From: Gemmatimonadales bacterium
Lineage (GTDB): Bacteria > Gemmatimonadota > Gemmatimonadetes > Gemmatimonadales > GWC2-71-9
Direction: 5' to 3'
NCBI GenBank assembly: GCA_037916975.1
Contig: JBAIWX010000141.1
Span: 1-57,141, forward strand
DNA: 57,141 nt
The notes under the pieces were generated by a model. That model was not told the origin of the DNA. It was given only the letters and a program-made list of their open reading frames with translations, and did not search any database. Every line of letters begins with the position of its first letter. Positions within the stretch are counted from its first letter, which is position 1. The translations under genes were made by a program, and so were the position numbers. Shown here one piece after another: positions 18,587-38,257 of the stretch.

Positions 18587-18614
18587 TGAAACACCCCGCC
18601 CCGCTATCTTCGTA
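18587..18614 (+). promoter_or_regulatory. Putative ECF-sigma promoter upstream of M48 peptidase
   Basis: TGAAAC-N18-CGTA (overlaps a TATCTT that could instead be a sigma70 -10). Confidence 0.45.
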
Positions 18615-18643
18615 GGAGAGCGCATCCCCGACCGGAGCATCCG

Positions 18644-19660
18644 ATGAGCGCGTCCATCCCGGCGCCCCGCCCGCGCCGCACCCTGCCCGACATCGCCGCC
18701 GTCTCCTGGGAGCATCCCGCCGACCGCGCCGCCCTGCAGGCCCTCCGGGCCGTCCCCGGCGTGGACGAAGTGATCCGGAAGGTGCTCGCGATGCTGGGCG
18801 GCGAGCGCGGCGTCCGGCTCCTCTTCCTGGGCAACGCGATCCGCGTCGGGCCGCAGCAGTTCCCGCGGCTCTGGACGCTCCACACCGAGGTCTGCACCAC
18901 CTTCGACTGGCCGGCGGTGCCGGAGCTCTACGTGTCGCAGACCCCGTTCGTGAACGCCGGCGCCTACGGCATCGACGCGCCGTTCATCGTCGTGCACTCC
19001 TCGGCGCTCGAGCTCCTCGGCGACGACGAGCTCCGCGTGCTCCTCGCGCACGAGCTGGGGCACGTCATCAGCGGCCACGCCCTCTACCGCACCATCGCCG
19101 CGATCCTCGCCCTCGTGAGCCTCGGCGCGCTGCCGGCGCTCGCCGGCCTCGCGCTCCTCCCGGTGCGGCTCGCCTTCCTCGAGTGGTCGCGCAAGTCGGA
19201 GCTCTCCGCCGACCGCGCGGGGCTCCTCGGGAGCCAGGACATCGTGGCCTCGCAGAAGCTCTTCATGTACTTCGCCGGCGGCGGGCGGGGCGAGCAGTTC
19301 GCGGGCCAGCTCAACGTGGACGCCTTCATGGCGCAGGCGAACGAGTACGCGACGGTGAACGAGGGCCTCGACGTCGTCTACAAGCTCCTCGCCACGCTCG
19401 CGCTCACGCACCCGATGCACACGATCCGCGCCGGCGAGCTGCAGGCGTGGCTCGCGGCGGGCGAGTACGACCGCATCCTGCGCGGCGAGTACGTGCGCCG
19501 GGGCGCGGAGGCGAAGGAGCGCCCGATCCGCGACGACCTCGCCGAGGCGGGCCGCTACTACGCCGGCGAGGCGCGCAACGTGGCCCAGCAGGTGGCCGAG
19601 GCGGCGAAGCGCGCCGCGCAGCGCGCGGGCGAGGCGTTCCGCGCGCAGCAGAAGACATGA
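18644..19660 (+). CDS. M48 family zinc metallopeptidase
   Basis: VNAGAYG, LAHELGH, WSRKSELSADRAG, THP. Confidence 0.9.
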   Translation: MSASIPAPRPRRTLPDIAAVSWEHPADRAALQALRAVPGVDEVIRKVLAMLGGERGVRLLFLGNAIRVGPQQFPRLWTLHTEVCTTFDWPAVPELYVSQTPFVNAGAYGIDAPFIVVHSSALELLGDDELRVLLAHELGHVISGHALYRTIAAILALVSLGALPALAGLALLPVRLAFLEWSRKSELSADRAGLLGSQDIVASQKLFMYFAGGGRGEQFAGQLNVDAFMAQANEYATVNEGLDVVYKLLATLALTHPMHTIRAGELQAWLAAGEYDRILRGEYVRRGAEAKERPIRDDLAEAGRYYAGEARNVAQQVAEAAKRAAQRAGEAFRAQQKT

Positions 19661-20931
19661 GGATCCTCGTCGTCGGGAGCGGCGGCCGCGAGCACGCCAT
19701 CCTCTGGCAGCTGCACCGGGAGGACCCGCGCGCGACGCTCTACTGCGCGCCGGGGAACCCCGGCACCGCCCAGCTCGCCACCAACCTCGCCATCGCGGCC
19801 GACGACATCGACCGGATCGCCGACGCGGCGGACGCCTACGGCATCGACCTCGTGGTGGTGGGGCCGGAGCAGCCGCTGGCGCTCGGCCTCGCCGACCGGC
19901 TCCGGATGGAGGGGCGTCGCGTGGTCGGGCCCGGCGCGGCCGCCGCGCAGATCGAGGCGTCCAAGGCGTTCGCGAAGGAGGTCATGCGGGCCGCCGGCAT
20001 CCCCACCGCGGCGAGCCGCACCTTCACCGAGCTCGACGCGGCGCTCGCGTACGTGCGCGCGCATCCCGAGCCGCTCGTGGTGAAGGCCTCCGGCCTCGCC
20101 GCCGGGAAGGGCGCGGTCGTCTGCGCCACGCGCGCCGAGGCGGCGGAGACGCTCACGGCGATGCTCGGCCGGGACGCCTTCGGCGAGGCGGGCCGCGTCG
20201 TCGTCGTCGAGTCGTTCCTCGAGGGCGAGGAGGTCTCGCTGCTCGCCCTCACCGACGGCACGTCGGTCGAGCTCCTCCCCGCCTCGCAGGACCACAAGCG
20301 CCTCGGCGAGGGCGACCGCGGCCCCAACACCGGCGGGATGGGCGCCTACGGCCCCGTCTCGCTCGCCACGCCGGCGCTCCTCGCGCGCGCGACCGGGGAG
20401 GTGCTCCTCCCCTGCCTGCGGGAGCTGCAGGCGCGCGGGACGCCGTTCCGCGGCGTGCTCTATGCCGGGCTCATGGTGTCGCGCGACGGCACGCCGTGGG
20501 TGGTGGAGTTCAACTGCCGGATGGGCGACCCCGAGACGCAGGTCGTGCTGCCGCTCGTCGCGGGCGGGTTCACCGAGTGCCTGGCGCGGATCGCGAACGG
20601 GGAGGCGCCGTCGCCGCTCCGCCTCGCGACGGGCCAGAGCGCCGTGACGACGGTGCTGGCTGCCCGCGGCTATCCCGACGCCGTGGAGAAGGGCGCCGCG
20701 ATCACGATCCCCGACGACCTCCCCGAGGGGGTCACCGTCTTCCACGCCGGCACCCGCCGGGACGCCGACGGGACGCTCCGGGTGAACGGCGGCCGGGTGC
20801 TCAACGTGACCGCGGTGGCATCGAGCTTCGCCGAGGCGCAGGCGCGGAGCCGCGACGCCGCGGAGCGGATCCGGTTCGAGGGCAAGCAGTACCGCCGGGA
20901 CATCGGCTGGCGCGAGGCGGCGCGGCGGTAG
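19657..20931 (+). CDS. purD: Phosphoribosylamine--glycine ligase
   Basis: ILVVGSGGREHA, APGNPG, GLAAGKG, QDHKR..GD.GPNTGGMGAY, EFNCRMGDPE, YRRDIG. Confidence 0.97.
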   Translation: MRILVVGSGGREHAILWQLHREDPRATLYCAPGNPGTAQLATNLAIAADDIDRIADAADAYGIDLVVVGPEQPLALGLADRLRMEGRRVVGPGAAAAQIEASKAFAKEVMRAAGIPTAASRTFTELDAALAYVRAHPEPLVVKASGLAAGKGAVVCATRAEAAETLTAMLGRDAFGEAGRVVVVESFLEGEEVSLLALTDGTSVELLPASQDHKRLGEGDRGPNTGGMGAYGPVSLATPALLARATGEVLLPCLRELQARGTPFRGVLYAGLMVSRDGTPWVVEFNCRMGDPETQVVLPLVAGGFTECLARIANGEAPSPLRLATGQSAVTTVLAARGYPDAVEKGAAITIPDDLPEGVTVFHAGTRRDADGTLRVNGGRVLNVTAVASSFAEAQARSRDAAERIRFEGKQYRRDIGWREAARR

Positions 20932-21063
20932 CGCGCCCGGCCTCCTCCGGGAGGCCCCGGACGGCGCGGTGGGCACTCCTCCGGAGGTGACGCCGGTCCC
21001 GGACGATGCCAAGTTGGGGGCGCCGCGCAGGCCGGCGGCGATCCCCCACCCCGGAACCGTGCC

Positions 21064-21780
21064 ATGCCCCAGCCCGTCCACTACGTCCCGATCGTCAGCA
21101 CGGTCGTCTCGACGCTCTTCGCCGTCCGTCTCTGGCGCCACTGGCGGCGGAAGCCGCAGGCGACCTACCTCCTCTGGTGGTTCATCGGCCTCGCCACGTA
21201 CGCGGCCGGCACGCTCACCGAGAGCCTCACGACCCTCTTCGGCTGGTCGGAGCCGGTCTTCCGCGCCTGGTACATCACCGGCGCGCTCCTGGGCGGCGCC
21301 CCGCTCGCGCAGGGCACGGTGTACCTGCTCCTCCCGAAGCGCACCGCCGACCGGCTCACGGCGGCGCTCCTCGCGGTGATCGCCTTCGGCAGCGTGGCGG
21401 TGCTCCTCTCGCCGATCGATCACGCGCAGGTGGACCCGACGCGCCTCACCGGCCGCGTGCTCGCCTGGCACTGGGTCCGGTTCGTCTCGCCGTGGGTGAA
21501 CCTGTACGCGGTCCTCTTCCTCGTGGGCGGCGCGCTCTGGTCGGCGTGGCGGTACCTCCGCGACCGCGGGGACGCCACGCGCATGTGGGGGAACCTCGCC
21601 ATCGCGCTGGGGACGATCCTCCCCGGCATCGGCGGCTCGTTCACCCGCTTCGGGCACGTCGAGGTGCTCTACGTGACCGAGCTCATCGGCGTGCTGTTCG
21701 TCTGGCTGGGCTACACGATCATGTCGCGGGACGGAAGCCGGAGCGTCCACGCCGCGCAGCGGGCGGCGGCCGCGGCCTGA
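21064..21780 (+). CDS. Uncharacterised multi-pass (about 7 TM) membrane protein
   Basis: Seven hydrophobic segments, good codon bias, no cytoplasmic output domain. Confidence 0.8.
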   Translation: MPQPVHYVPIVSTVVSTLFAVRLWRHWRRKPQATYLLWWFIGLATYAAGTLTESLTTLFGWSEPVFRAWYITGALLGGAPLAQGTVYLLLPKRTADRLTAALLAVIAFGSVAVLLSPIDHAQVDPTRLTGRVLAWHWVRFVSPWVNLYAVLFLVGGALWSAWRYLRDRGDATRMWGNLAIALGTILPGIGGSFTRFGHVEVLYVTELIGVLFVWLGYTIMSRDGSRSVHAAQRAAAAA

Positions 21781-25050: not shown

Positions 25051-25743
25051 TCACCGCAGCGGCGCCACCCACGCCCAGCGTGGCGGCTGGCGCTCCACCT
25101 CGGTCGCGCGCTGGCCTTCCGCCGGGGGCGGCCAGCTGCGCCAGCCGTGCGGCCGGTCGTCGTACAGCGTGACCGCCAGCGCGGCGCCGTGCCCCGCCTC
25201 CCCCGCGAACCAGCCCCGGTCGAGCCGCAGCTCCACGCTCCAGCCCGTCGCCGACGACGCGACGCGGAACGCGTAGTTCTCCGCGTCGAGCGCCCGGCCC
25301 ACCCGCCAGTCGGGGTCGCCGTTGGGCGGCATCCACCGCCCGTGCACGCCCCGGTTCACGACGCTCGAGTCCGCGACCCGCTGCACCACCCACTGCGTGT
25401 CGTCGTGCCCCGGCTGCGGCGTGCGGTCGCCCAAGGGGTCGAGGCTCAGCGTGAATGCGTCGCGCCACGAGACGCTGCTGTCCGGGATGACGGCGGCGAC
25501 GTACACCGACGAGTCGGCGGCGGCGAGCCAGACGAGCGCCTCGCCCTGCGCCGTCGCGATGCGGAGCGCGGGCGCGCCGTACTCCCCGGCGCTCGCGCGC
25601 CCGTCGAGCGCGGGGGGCGCGGCCAGCCGCGTGATCGCGAGCGTGTCCGGTGCGACGGACGCCCGTTGCGCGGCCGCGCGGGCGGGCGACAGCAGGGCCA
25701 GGGCCGCCAGCAGCGCGGGCACGCGGCGCACGGCGCTCAGCAC
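25051..25743 (-). CDS. Secreted protein, DOMON/CBM9-like fold (tentative)
   Basis: Signal peptide; PPALDG, VYVAA, D.FTLSLDP..D, GWSVELRL pattern. Confidence 0.6.
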   Translation of the reverse strand: MLSAVRRVPALLAALALLSPARAAAQRASVAPDTLAITRLAAPPALDGRASAGEYGAPALRIATAQGEALVWLAAADSSVYVAAVIPDSSVSWRDAFTLSLDPLGDRTPQPGHDDTQWVVQRVADSSVVNRGVHGRWMPPNGDPDWRVGRALDAENYAFRVASSATGWSVELRLDRGWFAGEAGHGAALAVTLYDDRPHGWRSWPPPAEGQRATEVERQPPRWAWVAPLR

Positions 25744-26835: not shown

Positions 26836-27420
26836 TCATCCCTCCCACCGCTTCGCGATGGTGACCTCGAGCCCGAGCTGGTCGAGGATCCGCTGCACCA
26901 CGAAGTCCACCAGGTCCGACACCTGCGCCGGCCGGTGGTAGAAGCCCGGCGCCGCGGGCAGGATGGTGGCCCCGGCCTCCGCGGCGGCGGCGAGGTTCCG
27001 CAGGTGGACGAGCGAGAGCGGCGTCTCGCGGGGGACGAGGATGAGCCGCCGTCCCTCCTTCAGCGTCACGTCGGCCGCGCGCTCGACGAGCGAGCGGCTC
27101 GCGCCGTGCGCCACGGCACTCACCGTCCCCATCGAGCAGGGGCAGATCACCATCCCGGCGGTGCGCTGCGAGCCCGAGGCGGGGAGCGCGCCGCGGTCGC
27201 CGTCGGGGAAGTGCCGGACGCTCCGCCACGGCCCGCCCGTCGCCCGCTCGAGCGCGGCCACGTCCTCGATCCCGCACTCCTCCCGCAGGAGCCGGAAGCC
27301 GTGGCCAGAGACGACGAGCCACGTGGGCACGCCGTGCGTGGCGAGCACCTCGAGGAGGCGCACCGCGTAGGGCGCCCCGGAGGCGCCCGTGATGGCGAGG
27401 ACGACCGGGAGCGCCGCCAC
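26836..27420 (-). CDS. ubiX: Flavin prenyltransferase
   Basis: ITGASGA.YA, ASGS, PCSMGT, RAADVTLKE.R.LILVPRETPL, PAAPGFYHRP. Confidence 0.96.
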   Translation of the reverse strand: MAALPVVLAITGASGAPYAVRLLEVLATHGVPTWLVVSGHGFRLLREECGIEDVAALERATGGPWRSVRHFPDGDRGALPASGSQRTAGMVICPCSMGTVSAVAHGASRSLVERAADVTLKEGRRLILVPRETPLSLVHLRNLAAAAEAGATILPAAPGFYHRPAQVSDLVDFVVQRILDQLGLEVTIAKRWEG

Positions 27421-27421
27421 G

Positions 27422-28357
27422 CTAGAGGAGCCGGTCGAGCAGCGCGAAGGCGAACACCGTCACGCTCATCACGGCGTTCATGGTGAAGAACGCGGCGTCG
27501 AGGCGGGAGAGGTCGTCCGCGCGGACGAGCGAGTGCTCGTAGACGAGGATCCCCGCCGCCGCGGCGACCCCCGCGAAGTACCAGCCGCCGAAGCCCGCCT
27601 GCCAGCCGAAGAGGGCGAGCGCGGGCACCGTCACGCCGTGCAGCAGCTTGGCGAGGAGGATCGCGCGCGGGACGCCGAGGCGGACGACCGCGCTCCGGAG
27701 CCCCGTGCGCCGGTCGAAGGCCTCGTCAGGGAGGGCGTAGAAGATGTCGAAGCCCGCCACCCACGTGAGCACCGCCGCGGTGATGACGAGGAGCAGCCAC
27801 CACGGCTCGCTCCACCGGCCCGTCACCGCAAGCCATCCACCCACCGGCGCGATGGCCAGCGACATCCCGAGCCAGAGGTGCGGCCAGTAGGTGAGGCGCT
27901 TCATGAGGCTGTAGGCCATGACCCAGGCGAGCGCCACCGGCGAGAGCCACCCGCACAGCGGGTTGATCGCCGCGGAGGCGGCGACGAAGACGAGCCCCGC
28001 GACGAGGACCGACCCCCACGCCTGCCGCACCGTCAGGTGCCCCTGCGGCAGCACGCGCCGGGCGGTCCGCGGGTTCGCGGCATCGAAGTGCCGGTCGGCG
28101 AGCATGTTGAAGCCGAGCGCGACCCAGCGTGCGGCCGTGAAGGCGAGCACCACGAGCCCCACCGTGCGCCAGGTCACCGGCGCACGGAGCGAGGCGGCGA
28201 GCACCCCGACCAGCGCGAACGGCAGCGCGAAGAGGGTGTGCGGGAGCTTGACGAAGTTGGCGTAGCGGACGAGCAGCGACTCGCCGCGGATCACCTGCCC
28301 GTCGGGCACCGGCACCGCCACGGTGCCCCCGGGCTGGGGACGATTGTCGGGATCCAT
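27422..28357 (-). CDS. UbiA-like polyprenyltransferase (MqnP-type)
   Basis: VKLPHTLFALPFA, FNMLADRHFDAANPRTARR, WVAGFDIFYALPD, AFFTMN. Confidence 0.9.
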   Translation of the reverse strand: MDPDNRPQPGGTVAVPVPDGQVIRGESLLVRYANFVKLPHTLFALPFALVGVLAASLRAPVTWRTVGLVVLAFTAARWVALGFNMLADRHFDAANPRTARRVLPQGHLTVRQAWGSVLVAGLVFVAASAAINPLCGWLSPVALAWVMAYSLMKRLTYWPHLWLGMSLAIAPVGGWLAVTGRWSEPWWLLLVITAAVLTWVAGFDIFYALPDEAFDRRTGLRSAVVRLGVPRAILLAKLLHGVTVPALALFGWQAGFGGWYFAGVAAAAGILVYEHSLVRADDLSRLDAAFFTMNAVMSVTVFAFALLDRLL

Positions 28358-28373
28358 CGGTCCTCGGTCTCGG

Positions 28374-29102
28374 TCAGGCGCGGGCGCCGGCGTGCATCGC
28401 GCAGGCGCCGCCCATCAGCACTTCGAAATCCACCCCGGCGAAGCCCTGCCGTTCCATCCGCCGCGCGAACTCCCGGGGCGCCGGGAAGTGCCGCGACGAC
28501 TCTGGAAGCCACGCATAGGCCGTCCTATGTTTCGACACGGCACGCCCGAGCGGCGGCAGCAGGTAGCGGAAATAGAGGGTGAACAGGGCGCGGAACGGTC
28601 CCGGTTCCGGCTGCGAGGTCTCGAGGACCACGAGCCGGGCCCCCGGCCGGAGCACCCGGGCGATCTCGGCGAGGCCCGCGTCGAGGTCCACCAGGTTCCG
28701 CATGCCCCACCCGACCGTGGCGCCGTCGAAGCTCGCATCCGCGAATGGCAGCTGCAGGGCGTCCGCGGTCACCGGCAGCACGGCGTCCGCCTTGCCGCGG
28801 CCCGCCTGGAGCATCCTCGGCACGAAGTCGGCCCCGATCACGCGCCCCCGGAACCCGGGCTCGCGCGCGAGCATGGCCCCGAAGTCGAGCGTGCCGGCGC
28901 AGAGATCGAGGTAGGTGCCGTCGGGCCGCCGCTCCCAGCCCAGGCGGCGCACCGCGCGCCGCCGCCAGCGCTGGTCGAAATTGAGGCTGATCACCCGGTT
29001 CATCCGGTCGTACGTCGGGGCGATCGCCGAGAACATCTCCCGGACGTAGGCCCGCTTCGCCGGTCCGCCGGAAACGGGTAACTCTTGATCGGATGCGAAC
29101 AT
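28374..29102 (-). CDS. menG: Demethylmenaquinone methyltransferase (UbiE/MenG)
   Basis: VREMFSAIAPTYDRMN, LDLCAGT, DALQLPFADASFD, RVLRPG, AYAWLPES. Confidence 0.9.
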   Translation of the reverse strand: MFASDQELPVSGGPAKRAYVREMFSAIAPTYDRMNRVISLNFDQRWRRRAVRRLGWERRPDGTYLDLCAGTLDFGAMLAREPGFRGRVIGADFVPRMLQAGRGKADAVLPVTADALQLPFADASFDGATVGWGMRNLVDLDAGLAEIARVLRPGARLVVLETSQPEPGPFRALFTLYFRYLLPPLGRAVSKHRTAYAWLPESSRHFPAPREFARRMERQGFAGVDFEVLMGGACAMHAGARA

Positions 29103-29110
29103 ACGCGCCA

Positions 29111-29140
29111 AATGTAGTCCCTCGCGGCGAAGCTCGGCAA
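29111..29140 (-). promoter_or_regulatory. Sigma70-like promoter, near-leaderless menG transcript
   Basis: Minus strand TTGCCG-N18-TACATT-N8-ATG. Confidence 0.55.
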
Positions 29141-29155
29141 GCACGGTGACGCCGC

Positions 29156-29761
29156 GTGGCTGATACCCGGCAGAACCTCTCCGGGCTCACCGACCAGGAG
29201 GTCGTGCTCCGCGCCCGGCAGGGCGAGGAGCGCGCCTACCGCGAACTCGTCCGGCGCTACGAGCGGCCGATCTTTTCGTTGCTCTATCGCATGGTCCGCG
29301 ACCGCGAGCTGGCCGAGGACCTGTCGCAGGAGACGTTCGTCAAGGCGCTCAACGCCATCGAGTCCTACCGCCCCGAGTACAAGTTCTCCAGCTGGATCTT
29401 CAAGATCGCGAACAACGCCGCGATCGATCACCTCCGCCGGCGCGAGCTCGACACGCTCTCGCTCGAGGGGTCGCCGCACGCCGAGACGCCGGAGGCGATG
29501 GAGGCCACGGCGCTCCAGATCGGCGACCGCGGCGAGACCCCGCTCGACATCGTCGAGGCCAAGGAGCTGGGCGGGGAGATCGAGCAGGCGATCGCGCGGC
29601 TCCGCCCGGAGTATCGCGCCTGCATCATGCTCCGCCACATCGACGGCCGGGCCTACGAGGAGATCGCCGAGATCCTCGACCTCCCGCTCGGCACCGTCAA
29701 GACCTATATCCACCGTGCCCGCAACGAGTTGCGCCAGTACTTGGCGCACCTGCGCCAGTAG
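29156..29761 (+). CDS. ECF RNA polymerase sigma factor (SigW/SigE-like)
   Basis: LAEDLSQETFVKA, FSSWIFKIANN.AIDHLRRR, YEEIAEILDLPLGTVKTYIHRAR. Confidence 0.95.
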   Translation: MADTRQNLSGLTDQEVVLRARQGEERAYRELVRRYERPIFSLLYRMVRDRELAEDLSQETFVKALNAIESYRPEYKFSSWIFKIANNAAIDHLRRRELDTLSLEGSPHAETPEAMEATALQIGDRGETPLDIVEAKELGGEIEQAIARLRPEYRACIMLRHIDGRAYEEIAEILDLPLGTVKTYIHRARNELRQYLAHLRQ

Positions 29762-29794
29762 GGGGAGCCCGGACAGTGTCGCAACGTGAAACGG

Positions 29795-29821
29795 TGAAAC
29801 CAGAGTTCGGACCCGCGCGTA
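29795..29821 (+). promoter_or_regulatory. ECF-type promoter between sigma and anti-sigma genes
   Basis: TGAAAC-N17-CGTA (a second TGAAAC at 29787-29792); resembles B. subtilis SigW consensus TGAAAC-N16-CGTA. Confidence 0.65.
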
Positions 29822-29834
29822 CATGGGGGTGTCT

Positions 29835-30443
29835 ATGACGCGACCGATCACCCAGCACCTGAGCGCCGACGAGCTCGACCTCGTTCTCGAGGGCACCATC
29901 CCCGAGAGCGTGCGCGCGCACGTGAATGCGTGCGCACCGTGCGAGCGCCTGGTGTTCGAGGAGCGTGCCCTCGTGCGGGAGCTGGCGCACCTGCCGCTCC
30001 ACGTGCCGTCGGTGGGCTTCGAGGATCGCGTCATGGCGCAGGTGCGGATCGCCGATCCGCGCCAGTCCCGTGCGGTGGCCCGGGTGGGCCGCCGCCTCTT
30101 CGCCACTCGCCGGTCCGCCCTGGCCGCCGCGGGGCTCCTCACGGCACTCGCCGGCTCCATGGCCGCGAGTGTCGTCTGGACGCTCGGTCACCGCGACGTG
30201 CTCGCCACGTGGGGCTCCGCTGCGCTCGACCAGGTCCTGCAGGTGACCTGGACGGCGCTGCGGTCGCTCACGGCCACGGCCATCGAGCAACCCTGGTACG
30301 CGACGCTCCGCAGCACGCTCGACGCCCCCGCCCGCCTGGCCTTCGTGGCCGGCGCCTCGGCGGCGGCGTGGGCGGGCGGGATGCTCGCGCTGCGCCGGGT
30401 GCTCGCGCTTCCCGTCCGGCGGGTGGCTCATGACCGCCCCTAG
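29835..30443 (+). CDS. Zinc-binding (ZAS) membrane anti-sigma factor
   Basis: HLS...HVNACAPC (HxxxCxxC), PSVGFEDRVM, two TM segments; follows ECF sigma; alternative ATG at 29823. Confidence 0.85.
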   Translation: MTRPITQHLSADELDLVLEGTIPESVRAHVNACAPCERLVFEERALVRELAHLPLHVPSVGFEDRVMAQVRIADPRQSRAVARVGRRLFATRRSALAAAGLLTALAGSMAASVVWTLGHRDVLATWGSAALDQVLQVTWTALRSLTATAIEQPWYATLRSTLDAPARLAFVAGASAAAWAGGMLALRRVLALPVRRVAHDRP

Positions 30444-31698
30444 GCGTCTCGCCCTCCTCCTGCTGCTGCTGGGCGCGGGCCTTCCCGCGCCCGGCTGGGC
30501 CGTGACGCCGGTGGACGTCGTCCACGACCTCTGGTCGCGCCTGCAGGGCGACGGCGACGCCGACGACCAGCTGCCGAAGCCGGCCCCCCACGCCATCGCC
30601 GGCGGCGCCGGCGCGCCCGCCGTCTCCCTCGGCGACCTGCGGCACCCGATCACCCTCGAGCGCGACCTCCGCGCGGCCCTCAACGGGCCGGAGGCCGGCT
30701 GGCGGCTCACCGTGCCCGGCGGTCAGGCCCGCGCCGGGGACTTCAGCATCGGCAGTGAGCAGACGACCGAGGGCGACCTGCTCGTGGTGCGCGGCACCGC
30801 GGACGTGTACGGCCGCCTGCGCGGGAACCTCGTCGCGCTCGACGGCGACGTCGTGCTGCACCACGGCGCGCTCGTGACGGGCGACGTCCTCGCGCTGGGC
30901 GGGCAGGTGCACGAACAGGGCGGCGAGGTGGGGGGCGAGATCCGTTCCCTCAGCGCCGCGCTGCGCGCCGGCGCGCCGGCGGCGGCACGCCTGCCGCTCG
31001 GGGCGCGCGTGGCGCGCGCGGTGGCGGGGGTGGGAGGCGTCGCGCTCTCGCTCCTCCTCGTCGGCTTCGGGCTCGTCCTCTTCGGGCGCGGCCCGCTCGA
31101 GGTGACCGCCGACACCGTCGCCAACTCCTTCACCCGCTCGCTCGTCGCGGGCCTCCTGGGCCAGGTGCTGGTGATCCCCACCTTCGGCATGCTGGTCGTG
31201 GGACTGATCCTCACGGTGGCGGGCATCCTCCTCATCCCGTTCGTGGTCGTGGTCTTCGCGCTCCTCCTCGTCGTCGGGCTGGTCGGCGGGACGCTGGCCG
31301 TGCTCCACGCGATGGGCGAGACGATCTCGCGCCGCCAGATGGCGAAGGGCGCGCGCGTCTCGCCGAACGGCTACCGCTACGTCGCGGTCGGGCTGGCGGG
31401 GCCGGTGGCGCTCTGGCTCGTGTGGGCGCTCGTGGGGTGGGTGCCGCTCGCCGGCGACCTGGTGCGCGGGGCCGCGATCCTCGTGACGTGGCTCCTCGCC
31501 ACGCTCGGCTTCGGGGCGGCGCTCCTCTCGCGCGGCGGATTCCGGGAGCAGTTCGCCGGCCGGATCGTCCCGCCGGAGATGCTCACCGACGAGTTCCTCT
31601 GGGCGACGCCGCGCTTCGGCGTCCCGTCGGTGAAGCGGCCCGGCAGCCCCGGCGACTCCACGCCCCCCTCGGGCTCGCGCCCGACCCAGGACCGGTGA
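30430..31698 (+). CDS. Membrane protein with exported bactofilin-like (polymer-forming) beta-helix repeats
   Basis: Signal peptide; GDLLVVRG..GNLVALDGDV..GDVLALGG..GGEI repeats; about 5 C-terminal TM helices. Confidence 0.75.
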   Translation: MTAPRRLALLLLLLGAGLPAPGWAVTPVDVVHDLWSRLQGDGDADDQLPKPAPHAIAGGAGAPAVSLGDLRHPITLERDLRAALNGPEAGWRLTVPGGQARAGDFSIGSEQTTEGDLLVVRGTADVYGRLRGNLVALDGDVVLHHGALVTGDVLALGGQVHEQGGEVGGEIRSLSAALRAGAPAAARLPLGARVARAVAGVGGVALSLLLVGFGLVLFGRGPLEVTADTVANSFTRSLVAGLLGQVLVIPTFGMLVVGLILTVAGILLIPFVVVVFALLLVVGLVGGTLAVLHAMGETISRRQMAKGARVSPNGYRYVAVGLAGPVALWLVWALVGWVPLAGDLVRGAAILVTWLLATLGFGAALLSRGGFREQFAGRIVPPEMLTDEFLWATPRFGVPSVKRPGSPGDSTPPSGSRPTQDR

Positions 31699-32570
31699 GC
31701 GCCACGGTGCGCCGGCACTCCGCCGCACTCGCGGCGCTGCTCGGCGCCGGCACGCTCGCCGCCGGCCCGCTCCGGGCGCAGTCGCTCCGCGAGTTCGACG
31801 TCGCGCGGCAGCTCAAGGGCGAACCGCGACTCGCCGTCGAGGTGCGGTACGCCGCGGGCAGCCTGCTCCTGCGGCCCGCGCCGCAGGGCTCGCTCTACCG
31901 GCTCCGGCTCACCTACGACGAGGATCGCTTCCGCCCGCTCGTGAGCTACGACGCGGCGTCGGCCCGACTGGCCCTCGGCGCCGAGCCGCTCGGCCGGGGC
32001 GGGATCTTCGCGCGGCACGCCGAACCGGCGCCGCAGGCGGCCACGGTCGAGCTGAGCGGGGAGGCCGACCTCGACCTCGCGGTGAGCCTGGGGGCGACGG
32101 AGGGAACCCTCGAGCTGGGCGGCCTGCGCCTCTCGCACGTGCAGGTGGAGGCGGGCGCGAGCCGCACGCAGGTGCGCTTCTCGGCACCGAATCCCGTCCG
32201 CTGCGCCCTCCTGCGCATCAAGGCGGGCGGCGGGGAGGCGACGTTCACCGGCCTGGGCAACGCACGCTGCGAGCGCGTGGACTTCGAGGGCGGCATCGGC
32301 GAGACCACGCTCGACTTCACCGGCGCCTGGACCGGCACGATGGCGGTGCACGCGGACATGGCCGTGGGCGGCCTCGTGCTCCGGCTGCCTCGCGACGCCG
32401 GCGTGCGGCTCCATCTCGACCGCTTCCTCGCGCGCTTCGCGCCGAGCGGACTCGTGGCCGGCCCGGACGGGACCACGTGGACGACGCGTGCGTGGGACGC
32501 GGCCCCCCGGCGCCTCGACATCGACCTCACCAGCGCGGTGGGCGGCGTGCGGGTGGCGTGGGCCGACTGA
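31695..32570 (+). CDS. Exported LiaF/DUF2154 (toast-rack)-like beta-solenoid protein
   Basis: GTG overlapping upstream TGA; signal peptide; repeats LGA.E..LELGGL, GAS...V.F, GGIGE..LDF, C-terminal I...VG.V.V. Confidence 0.7.
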   Translation: MSATVRRHSAALAALLGAGTLAAGPLRAQSLREFDVARQLKGEPRLAVEVRYAAGSLLLRPAPQGSLYRLRLTYDEDRFRPLVSYDAASARLALGAEPLGRGGIFARHAEPAPQAATVELSGEADLDLAVSLGATEGTLELGGLRLSHVQVEAGASRTQVRFSAPNPVRCALLRIKAGGGEATFTGLGNARCERVDFEGGIGETTLDFTGAWTGTMAVHADMAVGGLVLRLPRDAGVRLHLDRFLARFAPSGLVAGPDGTTWTTRAWDAAPRRLDIDLTSAVGGVRVAWAD

Positions 32571-32577
32571 CGGGGCG

Positions 32578-33153
32578 ATGACCCCGACGCAGCTCGCCGG
32601 CCTCGCCCTCGGCGCCGCCTTCGCCGCCGGGCTCAACGTCTACGCCACCGTGGCGCTGCTCGGCGCCGCGATCCACTTCCAGGTCGCCCCGCTCCCCCAG
32701 GGACTCCACGTCCTCGGCGACCCGGCCGTCATCCTCGCCGCCGGCCTCCTCTTCCTCGTCGAGTTCTTCGCCGACAAGGTCCCGCTCCTCGATTCCGCGT
32801 GGGACGCGCTCCACACCGTGGTCCGCCCGCTGGTCGCGGCGGCGATCGGCCTCGGCGCCTTCGCGGGGCTCCCGCCGGCCTGGCAGCTGGTGGCGGCGCT
32901 CGTGGCCGGCAGCGTCGCGCTCACGGCGCACGGCGCCAAGGCGACCACGCGCGCGGCGGCGAACGCCTCGCCGGAGCCGTTCAGCAACTGGGCGCTCAGC
33001 ACCGCGGAGGACGTGGTGGCCGCAGGGCTCACGTGGCTCGCGATCACGCACCCCGTCGTCGCGGGCGCGCTCGCGCTCGTGTTCGTGGTGCTGGCGCTGC
33101 TCGTGATCCGCGGGATGCTCCGGCTGGCCCGTCGGCTGTTCACGAAAAGTTGA
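32578..33153 (+). CDS. DUF4126-family membrane protein
   Basis: AAGLNVYAT, VEFFADKVP.LDSAWD..HT.VRP, SPEPFSNWALS.AED. Confidence 0.85.
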   Translation: MTPTQLAGLALGAAFAAGLNVYATVALLGAAIHFQVAPLPQGLHVLGDPAVILAAGLLFLVEFFADKVPLLDSAWDALHTVVRPLVAAAIGLGAFAGLPPAWQLVAALVAGSVALTAHGAKATTRAAANASPEPFSNWALSTAEDVVAAGLTWLAITHPVVAGALALVFVVLALLVIRGMLRLARRLFTKS

Positions 33154-33302
33154 CACTCGTTTCACGCGAGCGTCAGGCGCTCTGGACACCCGCCCGTGGC
33201 CGCCGCAGATTAGCCGGACGCGGAGCATGGTCCCGGCGGGATCGTCGCCCCGCGCCGTCGTTTCGGAGGACCGCGCTCCCCTTCCCCCGCCCGAGGCCGG
33301 CC

Positions 33303-33830
33303 ATGCAGGACATGCAGGCGATCGTCCAGGCGATCATCACCTCCCCGAACTTCATCTCCGAAGACGCCTACGTGGCCCGCGGGAACTACCGCGTCGCCCG
33401 CACGCCGAGACTCTTCAAGCACCTCGAGAACGAGCTGGTGCGCGCCGTGTTCCCGACGGACGTGAGCACGATCGTGGACGGCAGCGTCGTCTGCCTCACG
33501 ACGCTCTACGACACGCGCAACCGCGTGAACATCTACGCGCACACGATCTGCGCGGGCCCCGGGGTGAACACGCTCTTCCGCGCGATCCACACGCCGATGC
33601 CGAGCGCCCTCCCGCAGCCCGGCGTCGCGGGCGAGAAGGCGATCGCGCAGTTCGTCGCGTGGAAGCAGGCGGCCTGGGTCAAGTTCCTGAACGACGAGCT
33701 CGAGTACGGCACCGAGGAGGCGTCGGCGATCTGGATCGACAACTTCTGGAAGGCGCTCGACCGGCTCTTCGGCACCGGCCACCTCGTGGACTTCGAGCCC
33801 GGCCAGCTGCGTGCGGCGTTCGTCGGCTAG
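33303..33830 (+). CDS. Hypothetical soluble protein
   Basis: 175-aa ORF with very strong codon bias, followed by a perfect hairpin; start may be 33312. Confidence 0.8.
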   Translation: MQDMQAIVQAIITSPNFISEDAYVARGNYRVARTPRLFKHLENELVRAVFPTDVSTIVDGSVVCLTTLYDTRNRVNIYAHTICAGPGVNTLFRAIHTPMPSALPQPGVAGEKAIAQFVAWKQAAWVKFLNDELEYGTEEASAIWIDNFWKALDRLFGTGHLVDFEPGQLRAAFVG

Positions 33831-33894: not shown

Positions 33895-33918
33895 TGCCGT
33901 CCGGGGCGCGGCGCGGGC

Positions 33919-35724
33919 CTACCAGCGCCCGCGCGGCCGCCGCTCGTAGCCTCCCTCGAAGTACTCCTCCCAGCGGCGCTCGACGAGCCGCTGCACCTCG
34001 TCGGGGACGGTGACGGGCGGCGGATAGCCCTCCTTCCACGTCGCGTCGATCCCGATGCGGCCCGCGTACACCGGCATCGCGCCGACGAAGCGCTGCTCCT
34101 GGCAGACGAGGTCGCGCGCGGGGTCGAAGCGCGTGAAGATCCCCCAGATGGTGCTGGTCTCGTCGTCGAGGTCCACGTCGTCGCTCACCGCGGCGAGGAG
34201 CTTCACGGGGCCGAGCCCCTCCCACTGCACCAGCTTGGCGAGCACGTCGCGCGGCTGCTCGCGCACCTGCACCACGAGGAAGCCGCCCTCGAGCACGCGG
34301 TGCGCGGCGATGCGCCGGTCGAACGCCGAGGGGTCGCTCACGGCGGTGGGCGGCGCATCCGTCGTGACGGCGTCGCCGGTGGCGTCGAGGATCAGCTTGC
34401 TCCCCACGTGCAGGCGGTAGCTGGTGTAGTCGAGGGTGTCGAGCGGCGCGATCGGGAGGAGGAGCATCCGCTCGGTCGGCTCCCAGCGGTACCAGAGCTC
34501 GCGCAGGAGCGCCCGGAAGCTCCGCACCGGGACGTCGCGCCGCACCATGGCGGCGACCTTGGTGAGGGACAGCTGCCCCGTGCCGAGGAGGTTGAGCGCC
34601 ACCTTGAGCGCCTCCTTGGGGTGGCGCTCCACCATGGAGACCACGAGCAGGTTGTGGAAGACGGCGTCGTCGTACGCGTAGAGGTCGGTGATGCCGGGGT
34701 TGATGACCTTGATGAGCGGGCCGACGATCTCGCCCGCGGCCATCCCGACCCACTTGTCCTCCTGCGGCGGCTTGCCGACCACCGCGGCGGGGACGATCGG
34801 GTGCCGCCGCCGCGTCACCTTCCGCACGTGGAAGACGGGGAAGAGCTCGGCCTCCGAGTAGTGGCCGTAGTGGTCGCCGAAGGGGCCCTCCATGCGCCGC
34901 TCGTGCGGCGGCACGATGCCCTCGAGGATCACCTCCGCGTTGGCGGGGACGGCCAGACCGATCGAGACGCCCCGCACGAAGCGGGTCGGCGCGCCGCGGA
35001 GGTAGCCGGCGCAGGCGAGCTCGTCCATCTCCTCGGGAAGCGGGAGGATGGACGCGAGCATCGTCACGGGGTCGCCGCCCAGCACCACCGCCGCCTCGAG
35101 CGGCTGGTTCATCTCCTCGGCCACGAAGTGGTGGCCGCGCCCGCCCTTCATGCTCTGCCAGTGCATCCCGGTCGTGGCGCCGTCGAACACCTGCAGGCGG
35201 TAGAGGCCGAAGTTGCGGGTGCGCGAGCGCGGGTGCTCCGTGAGGGTGGGGCCCCAGGTGATGAACGGCCCGCCGTCGCGCGGCCACGCCCAGACGCTGG
35301 GCAGCCGGTCGATGCGCGGCTCCTCCACCACCTCCTGCGCCACGCCGCCCGACACCACCTGCGGGCGCATGTGGCGCGCCTGCCAGAGGCGGTCGCGCAC
35401 CTTCCAGAGCTTGCCGAGGGAGGGCGGGTTGAGCTGCTGGACGAGGCCGATGAGCTCCTCGCCGATCTCCTGCGGATGCCGGCCGAGCGCGAGCTCGATG
35501 CGGCGCGCGGAGCCGAAGAGGTTCATCACCAGCGGGAAGTCGGCGCCCTTCACCCGCTCGAAGAGGAGCGCCGGGCCGTCCTGGCGGATCACCCGCTGGA
35601 CGAGCTCGGCCACCTCGAACTTCGGGTCCACCTCGGCGCGGACGCGGCGGAGCTCGCCCGCCCGCTCGAGGTGGTTGACGAACGCCTGGAGGTCGGGCCA
35701 CGCGGGCCGACGGGAAGCGGACAT
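33919..35724 (-). CDS. ubiD: UbiD-family prFMN decarboxylase (menaquinone MqnL-like, C-terminally extended)
   Basis: GPALLFERV, NLFGS, WPRDGGPFIT, EGPFGDHYGHYS, VGKPPQED, IWGIFTRFDPARD, IGIDATWK. Confidence 0.9.
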   Translation of the reverse strand: MSASRRPAWPDLQAFVNHLERAGELRRVRAEVDPKFEVAELVQRVIRQDGPALLFERVKGADFPLVMNLFGSARRIELALGRHPQEIGEELIGLVQQLNPPSLGKLWKVRDRLWQARHMRPQVVSGGVAQEVVEEPRIDRLPSVWAWPRDGGPFITWGPTLTEHPRSRTRNFGLYRLQVFDGATTGMHWQSMKGGRGHHFVAEEMNQPLEAAVVLGGDPVTMLASILPLPEEMDELACAGYLRGAPTRFVRGVSIGLAVPANAEVILEGIVPPHERRMEGPFGDHYGHYSEAELFPVFHVRKVTRRRHPIVPAAVVGKPPQEDKWVGMAAGEIVGPLIKVINPGITDLYAYDDAVFHNLLVVSMVERHPKEALKVALNLLGTGQLSLTKVAAMVRRDVPVRSFRALLRELWYRWEPTERMLLLPIAPLDTLDYTSYRLHVGSKLILDATGDAVTTDAPPTAVSDPSAFDRRIAAHRVLEGGFLVVQVREQPRDVLAKLVQWEGLGPVKLLAAVSDDVDLDDETSTIWGIFTRFDPARDLVCQEQRFVGAMPVYAGRIGIDATWKEGYPPPVTVPDEVQRLVERRWEEYFEGGYERRPRGRW

Positions 35725-35826
35725 TCGGGGGTCGTGGGGTTCGGTGCGAGCGGTCGTACCCCGGCCGGCGCCGGGAGAGCCGCCGGGGAAGCTAGCGGCC
35801 CGGGAGGGGGGCGAGAAGCGCGCCGG

Positions 35827-36585
35827 TCAGCCGAGCCGGGCGCGCACCGCGTGGCCGACGCCGATGCCGAGCCGGCGCGCGGCGGAGCCGTCCCGGACGG
35901 CGATCTCCACGAACCCGCCGGAACCGACGAAGGCGAGGAGGCCGCCGGTCGGCACGTCGCCGAAGGTCCGCACGAGCTTCCCGACGACGAGGTCCTCGAC
36001 CTCGAGCACGGCGTAGGGCGGCACCTCCTCCGTCGTGAGGTTGGTGACGAGCGTGCCGAAGCGGTCCGCGTAGATCACCTCGCCCACCACGCTCTTCCCC
36101 TCGTAGCGCGGCGCGCCCCACGCGAGGCGGATCGGGGGCTCCACCGCCGGGGGGCCCAGGGTCTCGAGCGGATAGCCCATGAGGAGCCGAGCCGCGGCCG
36201 GCGCGAAGATGTCGCGGCCGTGGAAGGTCGGCGCGGCGGTCTCGACGTCGGGGAGCACGACGGCCTCCGCGCCGGCGATGCCCAGCGGATCGGAGAGGAG
36301 CCCGTTGTCCGGGCCGACGAAGTAGTGCCCGCCGGCGCAGACGGCGATGCCCCGTCGGCTCGTGCCCACCCCCGGGTCCACCACGCCCAGGTGCACGGTG
36401 CCCGCCGGGAAGCGCCGCCAGGCGCGGCCGAGGAGGTAGGCACCGGCGCGCACGTCGCCGGGGGTGACGGAGTGGGTCACGTCCACGATGGTCGTCGCGG
36501 GCGCATGGGTGAGGACGACGCCCTTCACCTCGGCGACGTACGAGTCGGCGAGGCCGTAATCGGTGAGGCAGGTGAGGAGCGGCAT
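35827..36585 (-). CDS. DUF62 SAM hydrolase (SAM-dependent chlorinase/fluorinase family)
   Basis: LTDYG..D.YV..VKGV, VVDPGVGT.R, GPDNGLL, TFHGRDIFAP, DRFG. Confidence 0.92.
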   Translation of the reverse strand: MPLLTCLTDYGLADSYVAEVKGVVLTHAPATTIVDVTHSVTPGDVRAGAYLLGRAWRRFPAGTVHLGVVDPGVGTSRRGIAVCAGGHYFVGPDNGLLSDPLGIAGAEAVVLPDVETAAPTFHGRDIFAPAAARLLMGYPLETLGPPAVEPPIRLAWGAPRYEGKSVVGEVIYADRFGTLVTNLTTEEVPPYAVLEVEDLVVGKLVRTFGDVPTGGLLAFVGSGGFVEIAVRDGSAARRLGIGVGHAVRARLG

Positions 36586-36597
36586 CGTCGAAAGCTA
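36586..36597 (-). promoter_or_regulatory. -10 box, leaderless transcript of DUF62 gene
   Basis: Minus strand TAGCTT-N6-ATG. Confidence 0.6.
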
Positions 36598-36752
36598 CAC
36601 CCGCCCTGCCGACACTCGCGCCGCATCCGCGCCGCCCCCCGGGGCCCGCCGGCCGCCCCGCCCCGCCACCGCCCGCCCCGGGCCCGCTCCCCCGGGCACC
36701 GGGGCCCGCCGAAGTTGCCCCGCGCGAAGGTCATGTTCCCCGAGCCGGAGAG

Positions 36753-38183
36753 ATGCCGATGCCGATCCTGCGGCTGCTCACCCTCCTCGCCGCGGCCGCG
36801 GCGCCTGCCGCCGCCCAGGCCCGCCCGAACGAACCCGCGGCGCTCGCGGTGCTCGACCGCGCGGTCGCCCGGATGGGCGGCGACAGCGCGCTCCGCGCGG
36901 TCCGCACGATCCGCATGGACGTGCTGACGCAATGGCAGCGCACCACCTTCGGCACCTACCCGTACGCCGACCAGCCGAGCTACGAGCGGCACGCCGACCT
37001 GCGCGACTACGCGACCGCGAGCTGGCGGAACACGCGCGACTTCCTCGGGCAGGGGCGCACGGTGGACGTCGTCGCCGACAGCGTGACGGGCCGCTGGCTG
37101 ACGGGGCCCGACGGGTCGGTGCGCGCGATGCCGATGAACCGCGCGTACGTGCAGGAGCGCCGGGAGCAGTTCGCCTTCGCACCGGAGCGGACGCTCCTCC
37201 TCGCCCGCGACGCGGGCGGGCTCCGCCGCCTCGCCGACACGACGATCGCGGGGGTGGTGCACGCGCGCCTGGCCGGCTCGGCCGACGGCTTCCCGACGAC
37301 GTGGTTCGTCCGTGCCACCGACGGCCTCCTCGCGATGGCCCGCTTCACCGCCGACGAGACCGACGACTTCGGCCTCGCGCCGTGGGGGGTGCAGGAGGTG
37401 GAGGTCTGGTATTCGGCGTGGACGACGGTGAAGCCCGGCCTCACGCTCCCGCGGCAGCGCGACGTGCGGCGCCTCGGGCTGCCGTACCGGCGGATGACCG
37501 CGCTCACGATCGCGGTCGGCGCCCCTGCACCGGCGGACTCCTTCGCGATTCCCGACTCGATCGTGACGCGCTACCTCGCCACCGAGCGGCGGCCGATGTG
37601 GGCAGCGCCCCTCGACGACGCGAAGGTGGTGGAGCGGGACTTCGCGACCTTCGCCCCGTGGTTCGGCACGTCGGGCGCCGTGCGGGTGGGCGGCGAGTGG
37701 GTGCTGGTGGAGACGGGGCAGGCCGACGGCGCGGCGGCGCTCCTCGACGGGTGGCTCACGACGAACGCGGGCGGGCCCGCGCGGCTCGGCATCGTGGCGC
37801 GCACCGGCACCGGGAACGGCGGCGCCCGCTGGTTCGCGCGCCAGGGCCGGCCGCTCCTCGTGGCCCCGGGCGCCAACGCCATGGTACGGCACATCATCGG
37901 GTCGGCGGCGCGCGGCGCCCGCCCAGGGACGGTGACGAAGGCAGGCTGGGTGAAGGTCGGCACCGACTCGCTCTGGGCCGAGCCGGTGGACCTGCCCGAC
38001 GCGCCGGGGGAACTCGCGGTCTACGTCCCGGCGCTCCGCTGGGTGTACCTCTCGACGGCGGGCGTGCCCGCCTACAAGCCCGAATTCGACGCGCTCGTCG
38101 CCCGGCTCCGGGCGCGGGGGCTGCCGGTCGAGTGGATGGGCTGGGCGCGGGCGTTCCGGGTGGCGGTCCCGCCGGCGTCCTGA
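36753..38183 (+). CDS. Secreted protein with degenerate metallo-beta-lactamase-like C-terminal domain
   Basis: Signal peptide ending AAAQA; LDRAVARMGG..AL..VRT N-terminus; C-half mimics MBL fold without HxHxDH. Confidence 0.7.
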   Translation: MPMPILRLLTLLAAAAAPAAAQARPNEPAALAVLDRAVARMGGDSALRAVRTIRMDVLTQWQRTTFGTYPYADQPSYERHADLRDYATASWRNTRDFLGQGRTVDVVADSVTGRWLTGPDGSVRAMPMNRAYVQERREQFAFAPERTLLLARDAGGLRRLADTTIAGVVHARLAGSADGFPTTWFVRATDGLLAMARFTADETDDFGLAPWGVQEVEVWYSAWTTVKPGLTLPRQRDVRRLGLPYRRMTALTIAVGAPAPADSFAIPDSIVTRYLATERRPMWAAPLDDAKVVERDFATFAPWFGTSGAVRVGGEWVLVETGQADGAAALLDGWLTTNAGGPARLGIVARTGTGNGGARWFARQGRPLLVAPGANAMVRHIIGSAARGARPGTVTKAGWVKVGTDSLWAEPVDLPDAPGELAVYVPALRWVYLSTAGVPAYKPEFDALVARLRARGLPVEWMGWARAFRVAVPPAS

Positions 38184-38230
38184 AGCTCCCCCGGGCCGCC
38201 CGGCCCCGGGGGGCCGTGACTGGCGCCGGA

Positions 38231-38257
38231 TGAAACGCCGGGCCGAGATTGGACGTA
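38231..38257 (+). promoter_or_regulatory. ECF-type promoter upstream of Ser/Thr kinase
   Basis: TGAAAC-N17-CGTA, same boxes and spacing as 29795-29821. Confidence 0.6.

Follow-up and report, generated by a model that had tools for sequence, protein, structure and literature searches.

Does the extracytoplasmic function (ECF) sigma factor encoded on contig JBAIWX010000141.1 of a Gemmatimonadales bacterium read a promoter motif that recurs around its own gene, and if so, does it control itself, its inhibitor or a wider set of genes? We examined this question for the whole stretch of 57,141 nucleotides (nt), hereafter referred to as the window (57 kb, approximately 75% GC), which the relatives of its MenG protein place in the order Gemmatimonadales. 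An earlier interpretation of the same DNA, here called the sequence-only reading, had proposed that three copies of the bipartite motif TGAAAC-N17/18-CGTA are ECF promoters located in front of the genes for an anti-sigma factor, an M48 peptidase together with PurD, and a Ser/Thr kinase. Exact matches were found at 18587-18614 (N18), 29795-29821 (N17) and 38231-38257 (N17), all three on the plus strand, in sense orientation, between genes and close to a start codon, as that reading had described. Taken together, our results indicate that the three sites are probably the promoters of a small regulon of the envelope-stress type whose reader is the SigW-like ECF sigma factor of this locus. The circuit is well supported yet conventional, and a specialist will not be surprised by it.

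Chance matches to the strict motif were hardly to be expected. The mean number in 100 dinucleotide-preserving shuffles of the window was 0.01, and none of the 100 shuffles reached three matches. The hexamer TGAAAC occurs only five times on the two strands, and three of these copies have CGTA at promoter spacing. Enrichment upstream of start codons, which the sequence-only reading had named as a check, was seen at the level of the window, where the sense strand contained three matches within 100 nt upstream of 38 genes, compared to 0.00096 expected from composition. Furthermore, a scan of both strands of the window that allowed one mismatch among the ten core bases yielded no additional site, which indicates that the motif does not arise casually in DNA with a GC content of 75%. 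Relaxing the motif to GAAAC-N15-19-CGT did not result in enrichment (4 found, 2.68 expected), and the single site that was added (28511, minus strand) lies within menG (28374-29102). The fifth TGAAAC copy of the window (33164, minus strand) was rejected as a site, as its strand is antisense to the plus-strand genes there and CGT follows at a spacing of N14.

To follow the motif through the order, we used 36 loci with 62-74% MenG identity and two outgroups with 36% identity, which were obtained by a scan with MenG and included 10-kb flanks, chosen to let a single locus cover all three sites. Regions for the conservation counts were picked by gene orthology and not by the presence of the motif. 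Genes were called via GC3, and families were searched in Pfam and NCBIfam. Synteny with the relatives is strong, and the sigma factor, with identities of 75-89%, is better conserved than MenG itself. Within the 530,966 nt of the 36 relative loci, the strict motif was found 53 times on the sense strand and not once on the antisense strand, while seven of eight composition-matched control motifs had no match in the same loci and the remaining one had three. All 53 matches belong to three gene classes, namely the anti-sigma factor (31), the M48 peptidase (11) and a secreted protein (11).

The spacers of the 47 unique sites comprise N17 (31 sites), N16 (15) and N18 (1). In 22 unique N17 sequences from the junction of the sigma and anti-sigma genes, the information content was 0.61 bits per position in the spacer and 0.70 bits in the upstream flank. 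As the rows of this calculation were picked by the N17 motif, only these two values are informative; the invariance of the blocks in it is circular, and the non-circular evidence is the count of 31 motifs at 31 junctions presented below. A spacer that is free in sequence and held at 16-18 nt in length points to a bipartite promoter and agrees with neither an operator nor an RNA element. It is thus very improbable, in our judgement, that the blocks are a regulator binding site or act at the RNA level, for example in translational coupling of the sigma and anti-sigma genes. Such a role in RNA or translation is conceivable at the anti-sigma junction, where CGTA abuts a GGAGG box at a distance of 11-15 nt from the start codon. 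However, the same blocks precede the unrelated genes for the M48 peptidase and the secreted protein, where the motif starts 53-63 nt from the start codon, and both the complete strand bias and the agreement of the blocks with a published ECF consensus argue for promoters.

Allowing one mismatch in the relatives' loci gave 17 matches (9 plus, 8 minus), which represent background except for a CGTC variant in front of the secreted protein. We also observed a G-rich run immediately after CGTA at all target classes, including those with a start codon about 30 nt further downstream; several of its positions are G in 32-42 of the 47 unique sites. The run, located at 29822-29834 at the anti-sigma gene of the window, may, besides forming the anti-sigma ribosome-binding site, extend the -10 element or serve as a discriminator.

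The putative reader of these promoters is encoded at 29156-29761 (plus strand) and comprises 201 amino acids. It contains only sigma regions 2 and 4 (Pfam Sigma70_r2, residues 31-96; Sigma70_r4_2, residues 141-192) and reaches 120.3 bits with the sigma70-ECF model TIGR02937 (cut-off 42.9), which assigns it to the ECF factors (group IV). The best NCBIfam matches are the two SigW equivalogs NF007223 and TIGR02948 (157.7 bits compared to a cut-off of 209, and 143.4 compared to 243.1, respectively), and the best match in the PDB is SigW of Bacillus subtilis (5wuq, E=8.7e-32). The recognition helix of region 4.2 reads GTVKTYIHR in the window sigma factor and GTVKTRIHR in SigW. The statement of the sequence-only reading that the motif corresponds to the SigW-type ECF consensus proved correct, since the published σW consensus consists of the same blocks, with TGAAAC as the -35 element and a CGTA -10 element that is described to confer highly selective recognition by σW (PMC5758882). 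At the sequence level, the elements of a SigW-type promoter (TGAAAC, CGTA and a spacer of approximately 16-17 nt) are present at the three sites of the window and the 53 sites of the relatives, with spacers of 16-18 nt. From the adjacency of gene and motif and from the likeness to SigW, we infer that the local sigma factor reads TGAAAC-N16-18-CGTA.

The gene downstream of the sigma factor (29835-30443, plus strand) plausibly encodes its anti-sigma factor, a predicted membrane protein of the ZAS type with 202 amino acids. It contains the motif H29-x3-C33-x2-C36 (HVNACAPC) and hydrophobic segments at residues 95-114 and 168-186. The H-x3-C-x2-C motif is kept in 31 of 32 anti-sigma orthologues, and H29, C33 and C36 were invariant in one alignment; the orthologue without the motif belongs to L030, the one rearranged locus. 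No Pfam family, including zf-HC2, was detected for the protein even at E<=1, and the NCBIfam model 'antisigma' (NF052375) was matched with E=0.0005 and 20.1 bits compared to a cut-off of 100. A model of the complex of the sigma factor with residues 1-90 of the anti-sigma factor had a score of 0.84, whereas the best of three controls reached 0.14. The mark applied to this score is reached by 116 of 157 solved complexes and by 2 of 215 mismatched pairs, counts that apply only roughly here, as our own alignments were used. The modelled contacts involve sigma2 (residues 20-69) and sigma4 (residues 137-196), the runs agreed in at least 95% of contacts, and the predicted local distance difference test (pLDDT) value of the partner was 81. 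Binding of the two proteins is supported by this model.

The predicted promoter P(anti), TGAAAC-N17-CGTA at 29795-29821 (plus strand), is located between the sigma stop codon and the anti-sigma start codon, and the strict motif was found at this junction in 31 of 31 loci of the relatives, with a spacer of N17 in 29 loci and N16 in two. The -35 element TGAAAC begins with the sigma stop codon TGA in 24 of these 31 loci. The window differs in this respect, as its sigma gene terminates with TAG (29759-29761), 33 nt upstream of the motif. The gap between the two genes measures 38-42 nt in most loci, and a scan of 28900-30000 in the window revealed no terminator-like site between them. The sequence-only reading had proposed an internal promoter by which the sigma factor transcribes its own anti-sigma factor in a negative feedback. 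The position of this promoter is borne out by the motif at all 31 junctions, and the lack of a canonical copy before the sigma gene is in line with negative feedback; the dependence of the promoter on this sigma factor is what we infer.

Within the window, 29786-29800 form a tandem duplication, GTGAAACG followed by GTGAAACC, and a first TGAAAC copy (in GTGAAAC) is located 8 nt upstream of the copy at promoter spacing. In the loci L030 and L002 a second GAAAC- or GGAAC-like element was also observed upstream of the junction motif.

P(anti) lies close to the gene it is predicted to transcribe. CGTA ends 13 nt before the anti-sigma ATG (29835) in the window, and an in-frame ATG at 29823 would be unusable from P(anti), being too close to CGTA. 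The corresponding distance is 11-15 nt in 29 of the 31 loci of the relatives, in most of which GGAGG follows CGTA directly. Transcription by ECF sigma factors usually starts 6-9 nt after the -10 element. The leader of a P(anti) transcript would hence consist of only a few bases, whereas messenger RNA reading through from upstream would keep the GGAGG box.

If the sigma-type promoter is positioned after the sigma gene, what transcribes the sigma gene itself? The one-mismatch scan of the window was empty here as well, meaning that no canonical promoter precedes the gene, and a scan of 28900-30000 for sigma-70-type promoters and terminators found nothing. The sequence-only reading had pointed out a weak variant of the motif, GGTAAC-N17-CATA (29077-29103, plus strand). 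This variant does exist at that position, but it overlaps codons 1-9 of the divergent menG gene on the minus strand and deviates from the 10-base core by three mismatches, including the G of CGT. GGTAAC forces a TTA at menG codon 8, which is the only TTA among the 731 Leu codons of 18 window genes. This TTA is kept in 34 of 35 relatives, most of which have a TTA at codon 2 as well. The exception is L030, the only locus in which the sigma gene is not divergently adjacent to menG; menG is located there behind ubiD in an operon, and neither GGTAAC nor TGAAAC was found in the upstream region of the L030 sigma gene. As menG of L030 is also no longer promoter-proximal, this locus is ambiguous as a natural test of GGTAAC. 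The conservation of the TTA suggests a constraint at the DNA or RNA level, which may be the sigma promoter, an AT-rich 5' end of menG or control by a rare codon.

These observations bear on the possibility that the sigma factor is positively autoregulated via the degenerate GGTAAC-N17-CATA, which the codons of menG would keep off consensus. Such autoregulation would be compatible with the regulon proposed here, and we regard it as conceivable, if somewhat unlikely. The singular TTA and its loss only where sigma and menG are no longer adjacent would be in line with it, as would the predicted start about 45-50 nt before the sigma GTG. The mismatches, including the one in CGT, nevertheless speak against it, the conservation of the element is confounded by coding, since CAT is the start codon of menG, and the loss of the TTA in L030 equally fits a need for a promoter-proximal or leaderless menG 5' end. 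The lack of both GGTAAC and TGAAAC before the L030 sigma gene is a further point against it.

Some additional features were noted in this region. On the minus strand of 29111-29140, a sigma-70-like TTGCCG-N18-TACATT was observed, the TACATT of which ends 8 nt before the menG ATG; the consensus scan made no call for it. The AATGTA/AATCTA and GCAAG blocks proved to be conserved when the relatives were aligned. The menG messenger RNA may be leaderless. In L030, a TATCTT box precedes the ATG of the sigma gene by about 10 nt, pointing to a sigma messenger RNA without a leader in this locus.

Two further target classes extend the proposed regulon beyond the anti-sigma factor. The predicted promoter P(M48), TGAAAC-N18-CGTA (18587-18614, plus strand), ends 29 nt before the ATG (18644) of a gene for an M48 zinc metallopeptidase (18644-19660, plus strand; Pfam Peptidase_M48, E=3.3e-19). 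The protein has the sequence HELGH, in which HExxH is kept, and one hydrophobic stretch; its matches to HtpX are weak and far under the cut-off. The following gene, purD (19660-20931, plus strand), encodes GAR synthetase (Pfam GARS_N/A/C). Its start and the M48 stop share one base, which makes co-transcription of both genes probable, and their adjacency is kept in the relatives. The Pfam results agree with the gene identities given in the sequence-only reading for the ECF sigma factor (Sigma70_r2, Sigma70_r4_2), the M48 peptidase, PurD and the Hanks kinase. Its expectation of a motif conserved upstream of orthologues was likewise met by the M48 gene, as the strict motif was found 53-63 nt before the M48 start, with a spacer of N16 or N17, in 10 of the 10 loci with enough upstream DNA. 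L027 also has the motif at its M48 gene, even though the N-terminus of the protein is unaligned there.

The second class consists of a secreted DUF3887-like protein of 143-177 amino acids with a weak DUF3887 match and a conserved RKG-PQYWR stretch. In 16 loci in total, the motif is located about 55-62 nt before its start; 11 of them, with proteins of 153-177 amino acids, contain CGTA (L017, L019, L020, L022, L024-L029 and L034) and five the variant TGAAAC-N17-CGTC (L002, L003, L005, L008 and L009). A tblastn search detected no homologue of this protein in the 57-kb window. The prediction that the anti-sigma site, the M48 site and the secreted-protein class represent conserved ECF promoters is strongly supported.

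The situation is different for the third site of the window. P(kinase), TGAAAC-N17-CGTA (38231-38257, plus strand), is a predicted ECF promoter specific to the window and ends 17 nt before the ATG (38275) of a Hanks-type Ser/Thr kinase gene (38275-40155, plus strand; Pfam Pkinase, E=1.2e-43). The hydrophobic segments of the kinase are located at residues 307-360, after the catalytic domain, and its N-terminus aligns from residue 1 in four relatives. There is no clear ribosome-binding site before the ATG. Nine loci contain a homologous kinase (approximately 47-65% identity over the aligned part) after the gene for SAM hydroxide adenosyltransferase (SAM-HAT). All nine belong to the more distant loci (62-64% MenG identity) with a gene order unlike that of the window, and each of them has a PPK2 gene (Pfam E=4.1e-94 in L019) before the kinase gene, whose start overlaps the PPK2 stop or is near it. 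As the gene order differs, the conservation test at this site is uninformative beyond its bare outcome, which was zero motifs before nine homologous kinases. The place of PPK2 is occupied in the window by an unrelated secreted protein of 476 amino acids (36753-38183, plus strand) with a signal-peptide-like N-terminus and no Pfam or NCBIfam family, followed by the motif. No homologue of this protein was found in any of the 38 loci.

The coupling of ECF and Ser/Thr signalling, which the sequence-only reading had put forward, could thus not be upheld as a general feature: it is based on the single kinase site of the window, and the absence of the motif in nine of nine relatives makes the link lineage-specific at best. 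The site might even be a lineage-specific accident or a non-functional remnant, in which case the regulon would have no real connection to Ser/Thr signalling. The nine motif-free homologues behind PPK2, the unrelated gene at the position of PPK2, the short distance of 17 nt and the missing ribosome-binding site are consistent with this explanation, which we nevertheless consider unlikely, as a perfect match to all ten core bases lies in sense orientation just upstream of a start, with 0.00096 such matches expected over all 38 upstream regions, and in a window without one-mismatch decoys. A chance match is statistically very unlikely. Repeats were observed near the kinase genes of two relatives: in L019 (approximately 5770-5910, upstream of PPK2), and also in L022, heptads of the CACGAAA type and their reverse complements (TTTCGTG) are arrayed between SAM-HAT and PPK2 and make up a long inverted repeat.

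Several points weigh against a regulon of three promoters read by the local sigma factor. Besides the nine kinase homologues lacking the motif, the sigma factor stays under both SigW equivalog cut-offs and is for this reason SigW-like rather than a SigW orthologue. The spacer of the M48 site in the window is the sole N18 among the 47 unique sites, so that this promoter may be weak. With CGTA only 11-15 nt from the start codon, a P(anti) transcript would lack most of the GGAGG box and would need translation of the leaderless type. As the SigW-RsiW complex has been solved, the favourable score of the complex model may reflect likeness to it and not independent evidence. Lastly, genomes contain on average about 10 ECF sigma factors (PMC7826278), and 57 kb of this genome were examined. 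The motif could accordingly be a real ECF promoter that is read by a different ECF sigma factor encoded elsewhere in the genome, with the anti-sigma operon, the M48 gene and the kinase gene subject to a cascade or cross-regulation. Overlapping -35 and -10 specificities are documented for ECF paralogues of B. subtilis (PMC5758882). We nonetheless judge this alternative to be quite improbable, because the motif is physically fused to the sigma gene where the stop codon starts the -35 element, the local sigma factor is closest to SigW, whose consensus is the motif, and sigma factor and motif are both nearly invariant across the order. In addition, no other sigma factor was detected among the 36 proteins of the 57-kb window that were run against Pfam.

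With the local sigma factor as the probable reader, we propose the following circuit. The sigma gene would be co-transcribed with the genes for the ZAS anti-sigma factor and two downstream proteins, here called P2 and X1, from a non-canonical promoter whose DNA partly coincides with the 5' end of menG, the divergent neighbour. Upon inactivation of the anti-sigma factor, the free sigma factor would take RNA polymerase to the TGAAAC-N16-18-CGTA promoters. The promoter located right after the sigma coding sequence would lead to more anti-sigma factor (and P2 and X1) without more sigma factor, resulting in a negative feedback and a fast shut-off. A second promoter would drive expression of the M48 metalloprotease, with purD carried along, and a third, present only in the relatives, that of the small secreted DUF3887-like protein, while the further copy in this genome would serve the membrane-bound Hanks kinase. 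Transcription start positions, the inducing signal and the activity of the kinase site are presumed in this scheme. It may be speculated further that the anti-sigma gene uses one start codon with two modes of translation, depending on which promoter has fired (nearly leaderless from P(anti), via the GGAGG box on read-through messenger RNA), that the feedback is purely negative across the Gemmatimonadales, and that the Hanks kinase was captured in this genome, which would place Ser/Thr signalling downstream of an ECF sigma factor. We regard this combined extension as rather doubtful.

The genes that would share the anti-sigma transcript encode membrane or exported proteins. P2 (30430-31698, plus strand) is a conserved membrane protein of the multi-pass type, part of which weakly resembles bactofilin or DUF8173 (bactofilin E=0.0067, under the cut-off). 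It follows the anti-sigma factor in the relatives with 47-65% identity, and its Atlas neighbours are hypothetical proteins of Gemmatimonadota. X1 (31695-32570, plus strand), delimited by frame analysis, is an exported protein, likewise conserved, whose candidate start codon (GTG, 31695) overlaps the P2 stop; a homologue was found in 25 loci, mostly starting within approximately 100 nt of the aligned P2 end. Its match to LiaF-like_C (E=0.045) can be taken as a lead only. The next gene encodes a DUF4126 membrane protein (32575-33153, plus strand; Pfam E=2.2e-51). It is found downstream in 12 loci, and broad conservation along the plus-strand run ends with it.

Other genes around the three sites are a Cys/Met pyridoxal phosphate (PLP) enzyme (16945-18513, plus strand), ubiX, ubiA and menG (26836-29102, minus strand), X3 (33236-33830, plus strand), ubiD (33919-35724, minus strand) and SAM-HAT (35827-36585, minus strand). 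Pfam, NCBIfam and Atlas searches provided no confident family for P2, X1, X3, the 476-amino-acid protein and a protein of 230 amino acids (25051-25743). Elsewhere in the window (5723-8830, minus strand), we noticed a type II/IV secretion ATPase of the T2SSE/MshEN type that is fused to a C-terminal response-regulator receiver, in an open reading frame of approximately 1035 amino acids (stop-to-stop).

Gemmatimonadota are abundant in soil, and we know of almost no experimentally studied regulation in this phylum. A literature search, judged by titles and the beginnings of abstracts, found no paper on ECF regulons of Gemmatimonadota. The analysis provides a testable prediction of a regulon for the whole order that names the sigma factor, the anti-sigma factor and a 10-base promoter core; its targets comprise three classes that are conserved and one gene that is lineage-specific. 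ECF systems in which the inhibitor, rather than the sigma factor, is served by a sigma-type promoter also gain a phylogenetically distant member. ECF sigma factors are described to 'usually autoregulate', and automated prediction of target motifs usually searches upstream of the sigma gene (PMC7826278). As the motif is located here after and not before the sigma gene, an automated search of this kind would miss it. Experimental work could be rewarding on three features, namely the sigma stop codon that is fused with the -35 element, the predicted anti-sigma transcript with its near-leaderless geometry and the lack of a canonical autoregulatory promoter.

How does this circuit compare to known systems? 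In B. subtilis, the usual σW spacer is N16, and RsiW is activated proteolytically through PrsW and RasP. The Gemmatimonadales system resembles σW/RsiW in that σW is the best family and structure match of the sigma factor, and the promoter blocks are identical to those described for σW (PMC5758882). A membrane-bound anti-sigma factor with H-x3-C-x2-C and targets of membrane or envelope character are shared as well. It differs in its phylum, in a sigma factor that stays under the equivalog cut-offs and in a spacer that is mostly N17 (31 of 47 unique sites). Furthermore, B. subtilis has an autoregulatory promoter of sigW (PMC5758882), whereas no canonical copy precedes the sigma gene here and the promoter is located after it. 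Unlike RsiW, the anti-sigma factor of the window has two hydrophobic segments and no Pfam zf-HC2 match.

In Corynebacterium glutamicum, the anti-sigma factor RshA is soluble. Housekeeping promoters of this organism transcribe sigH and rshA together, and rshA alone has a further promoter that depends on SigH, for which the authors propose a role in a quick shut-down of the response (Busche et al. 2012, PMC3489674). The promoter wiring, demonstrated by experiment in that system, is the same as that predicted here, and the anti-sigma factor is also of the ZAS type, while ECF group and consensus (GGAA...GTT type) are different (PMC3489674). Transcription of rshA is reported to start 62 and 66 nt before its start codon (PMC3489674), whereas CGTA ends 11-15 nt from the anti-sigma start codon in the Gemmatimonadales loci. 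Another difference from C. glutamicum is seen in 24 of the 31 loci, where sigma stop codon and -35 element overlap.

The rpoE-rseABC operon of Escherichia coli contains an internal σE-dependent promoter, rseA P3, which transcribes the anti-sigma gene independently of the sigma gene (PMC8595263). Hence, a sigma-type promoter inside the operon and before the anti-sigma gene is common to both systems. E. coli has a σE-dependent rpoE promoter too, which gives rise to positive as well as negative loops (PMC8595263), unlike the locus studied here with no canonical copy before the sigma gene. Consensus and anti-sigma family also differ.

Among classified ECF groups, ECF25 includes a Gemmatimonadetes subgroup, ECF25s4, and its anti-sigma factor is encoded at position +1 and typically zinc-binding (Casas-Pastor et al. 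2021, PMC7826278). Variants of the anti-sigma factor with two transmembrane helices occur in ECF25, and a link to cell-wall homeostasis is described (PMC7826278). The motif predicted for ECF25s1 and ECF25s2, GGAAC / GTC (PMC7826278), is looser than TGAAAC / CGTA. In the position of its predicted promoter, the system studied here follows PrshA and rseA P3, as a site is located between the sigma start and the anti-sigma gene both in the window (29795-29821) and in 31 of 31 relatives. Since a sigma-type promoter before the anti-sigma gene, and not before the sigma gene, has experimental precedents, this kind of wiring is already known, and the Gemmatimonadales would be a further group to use it.

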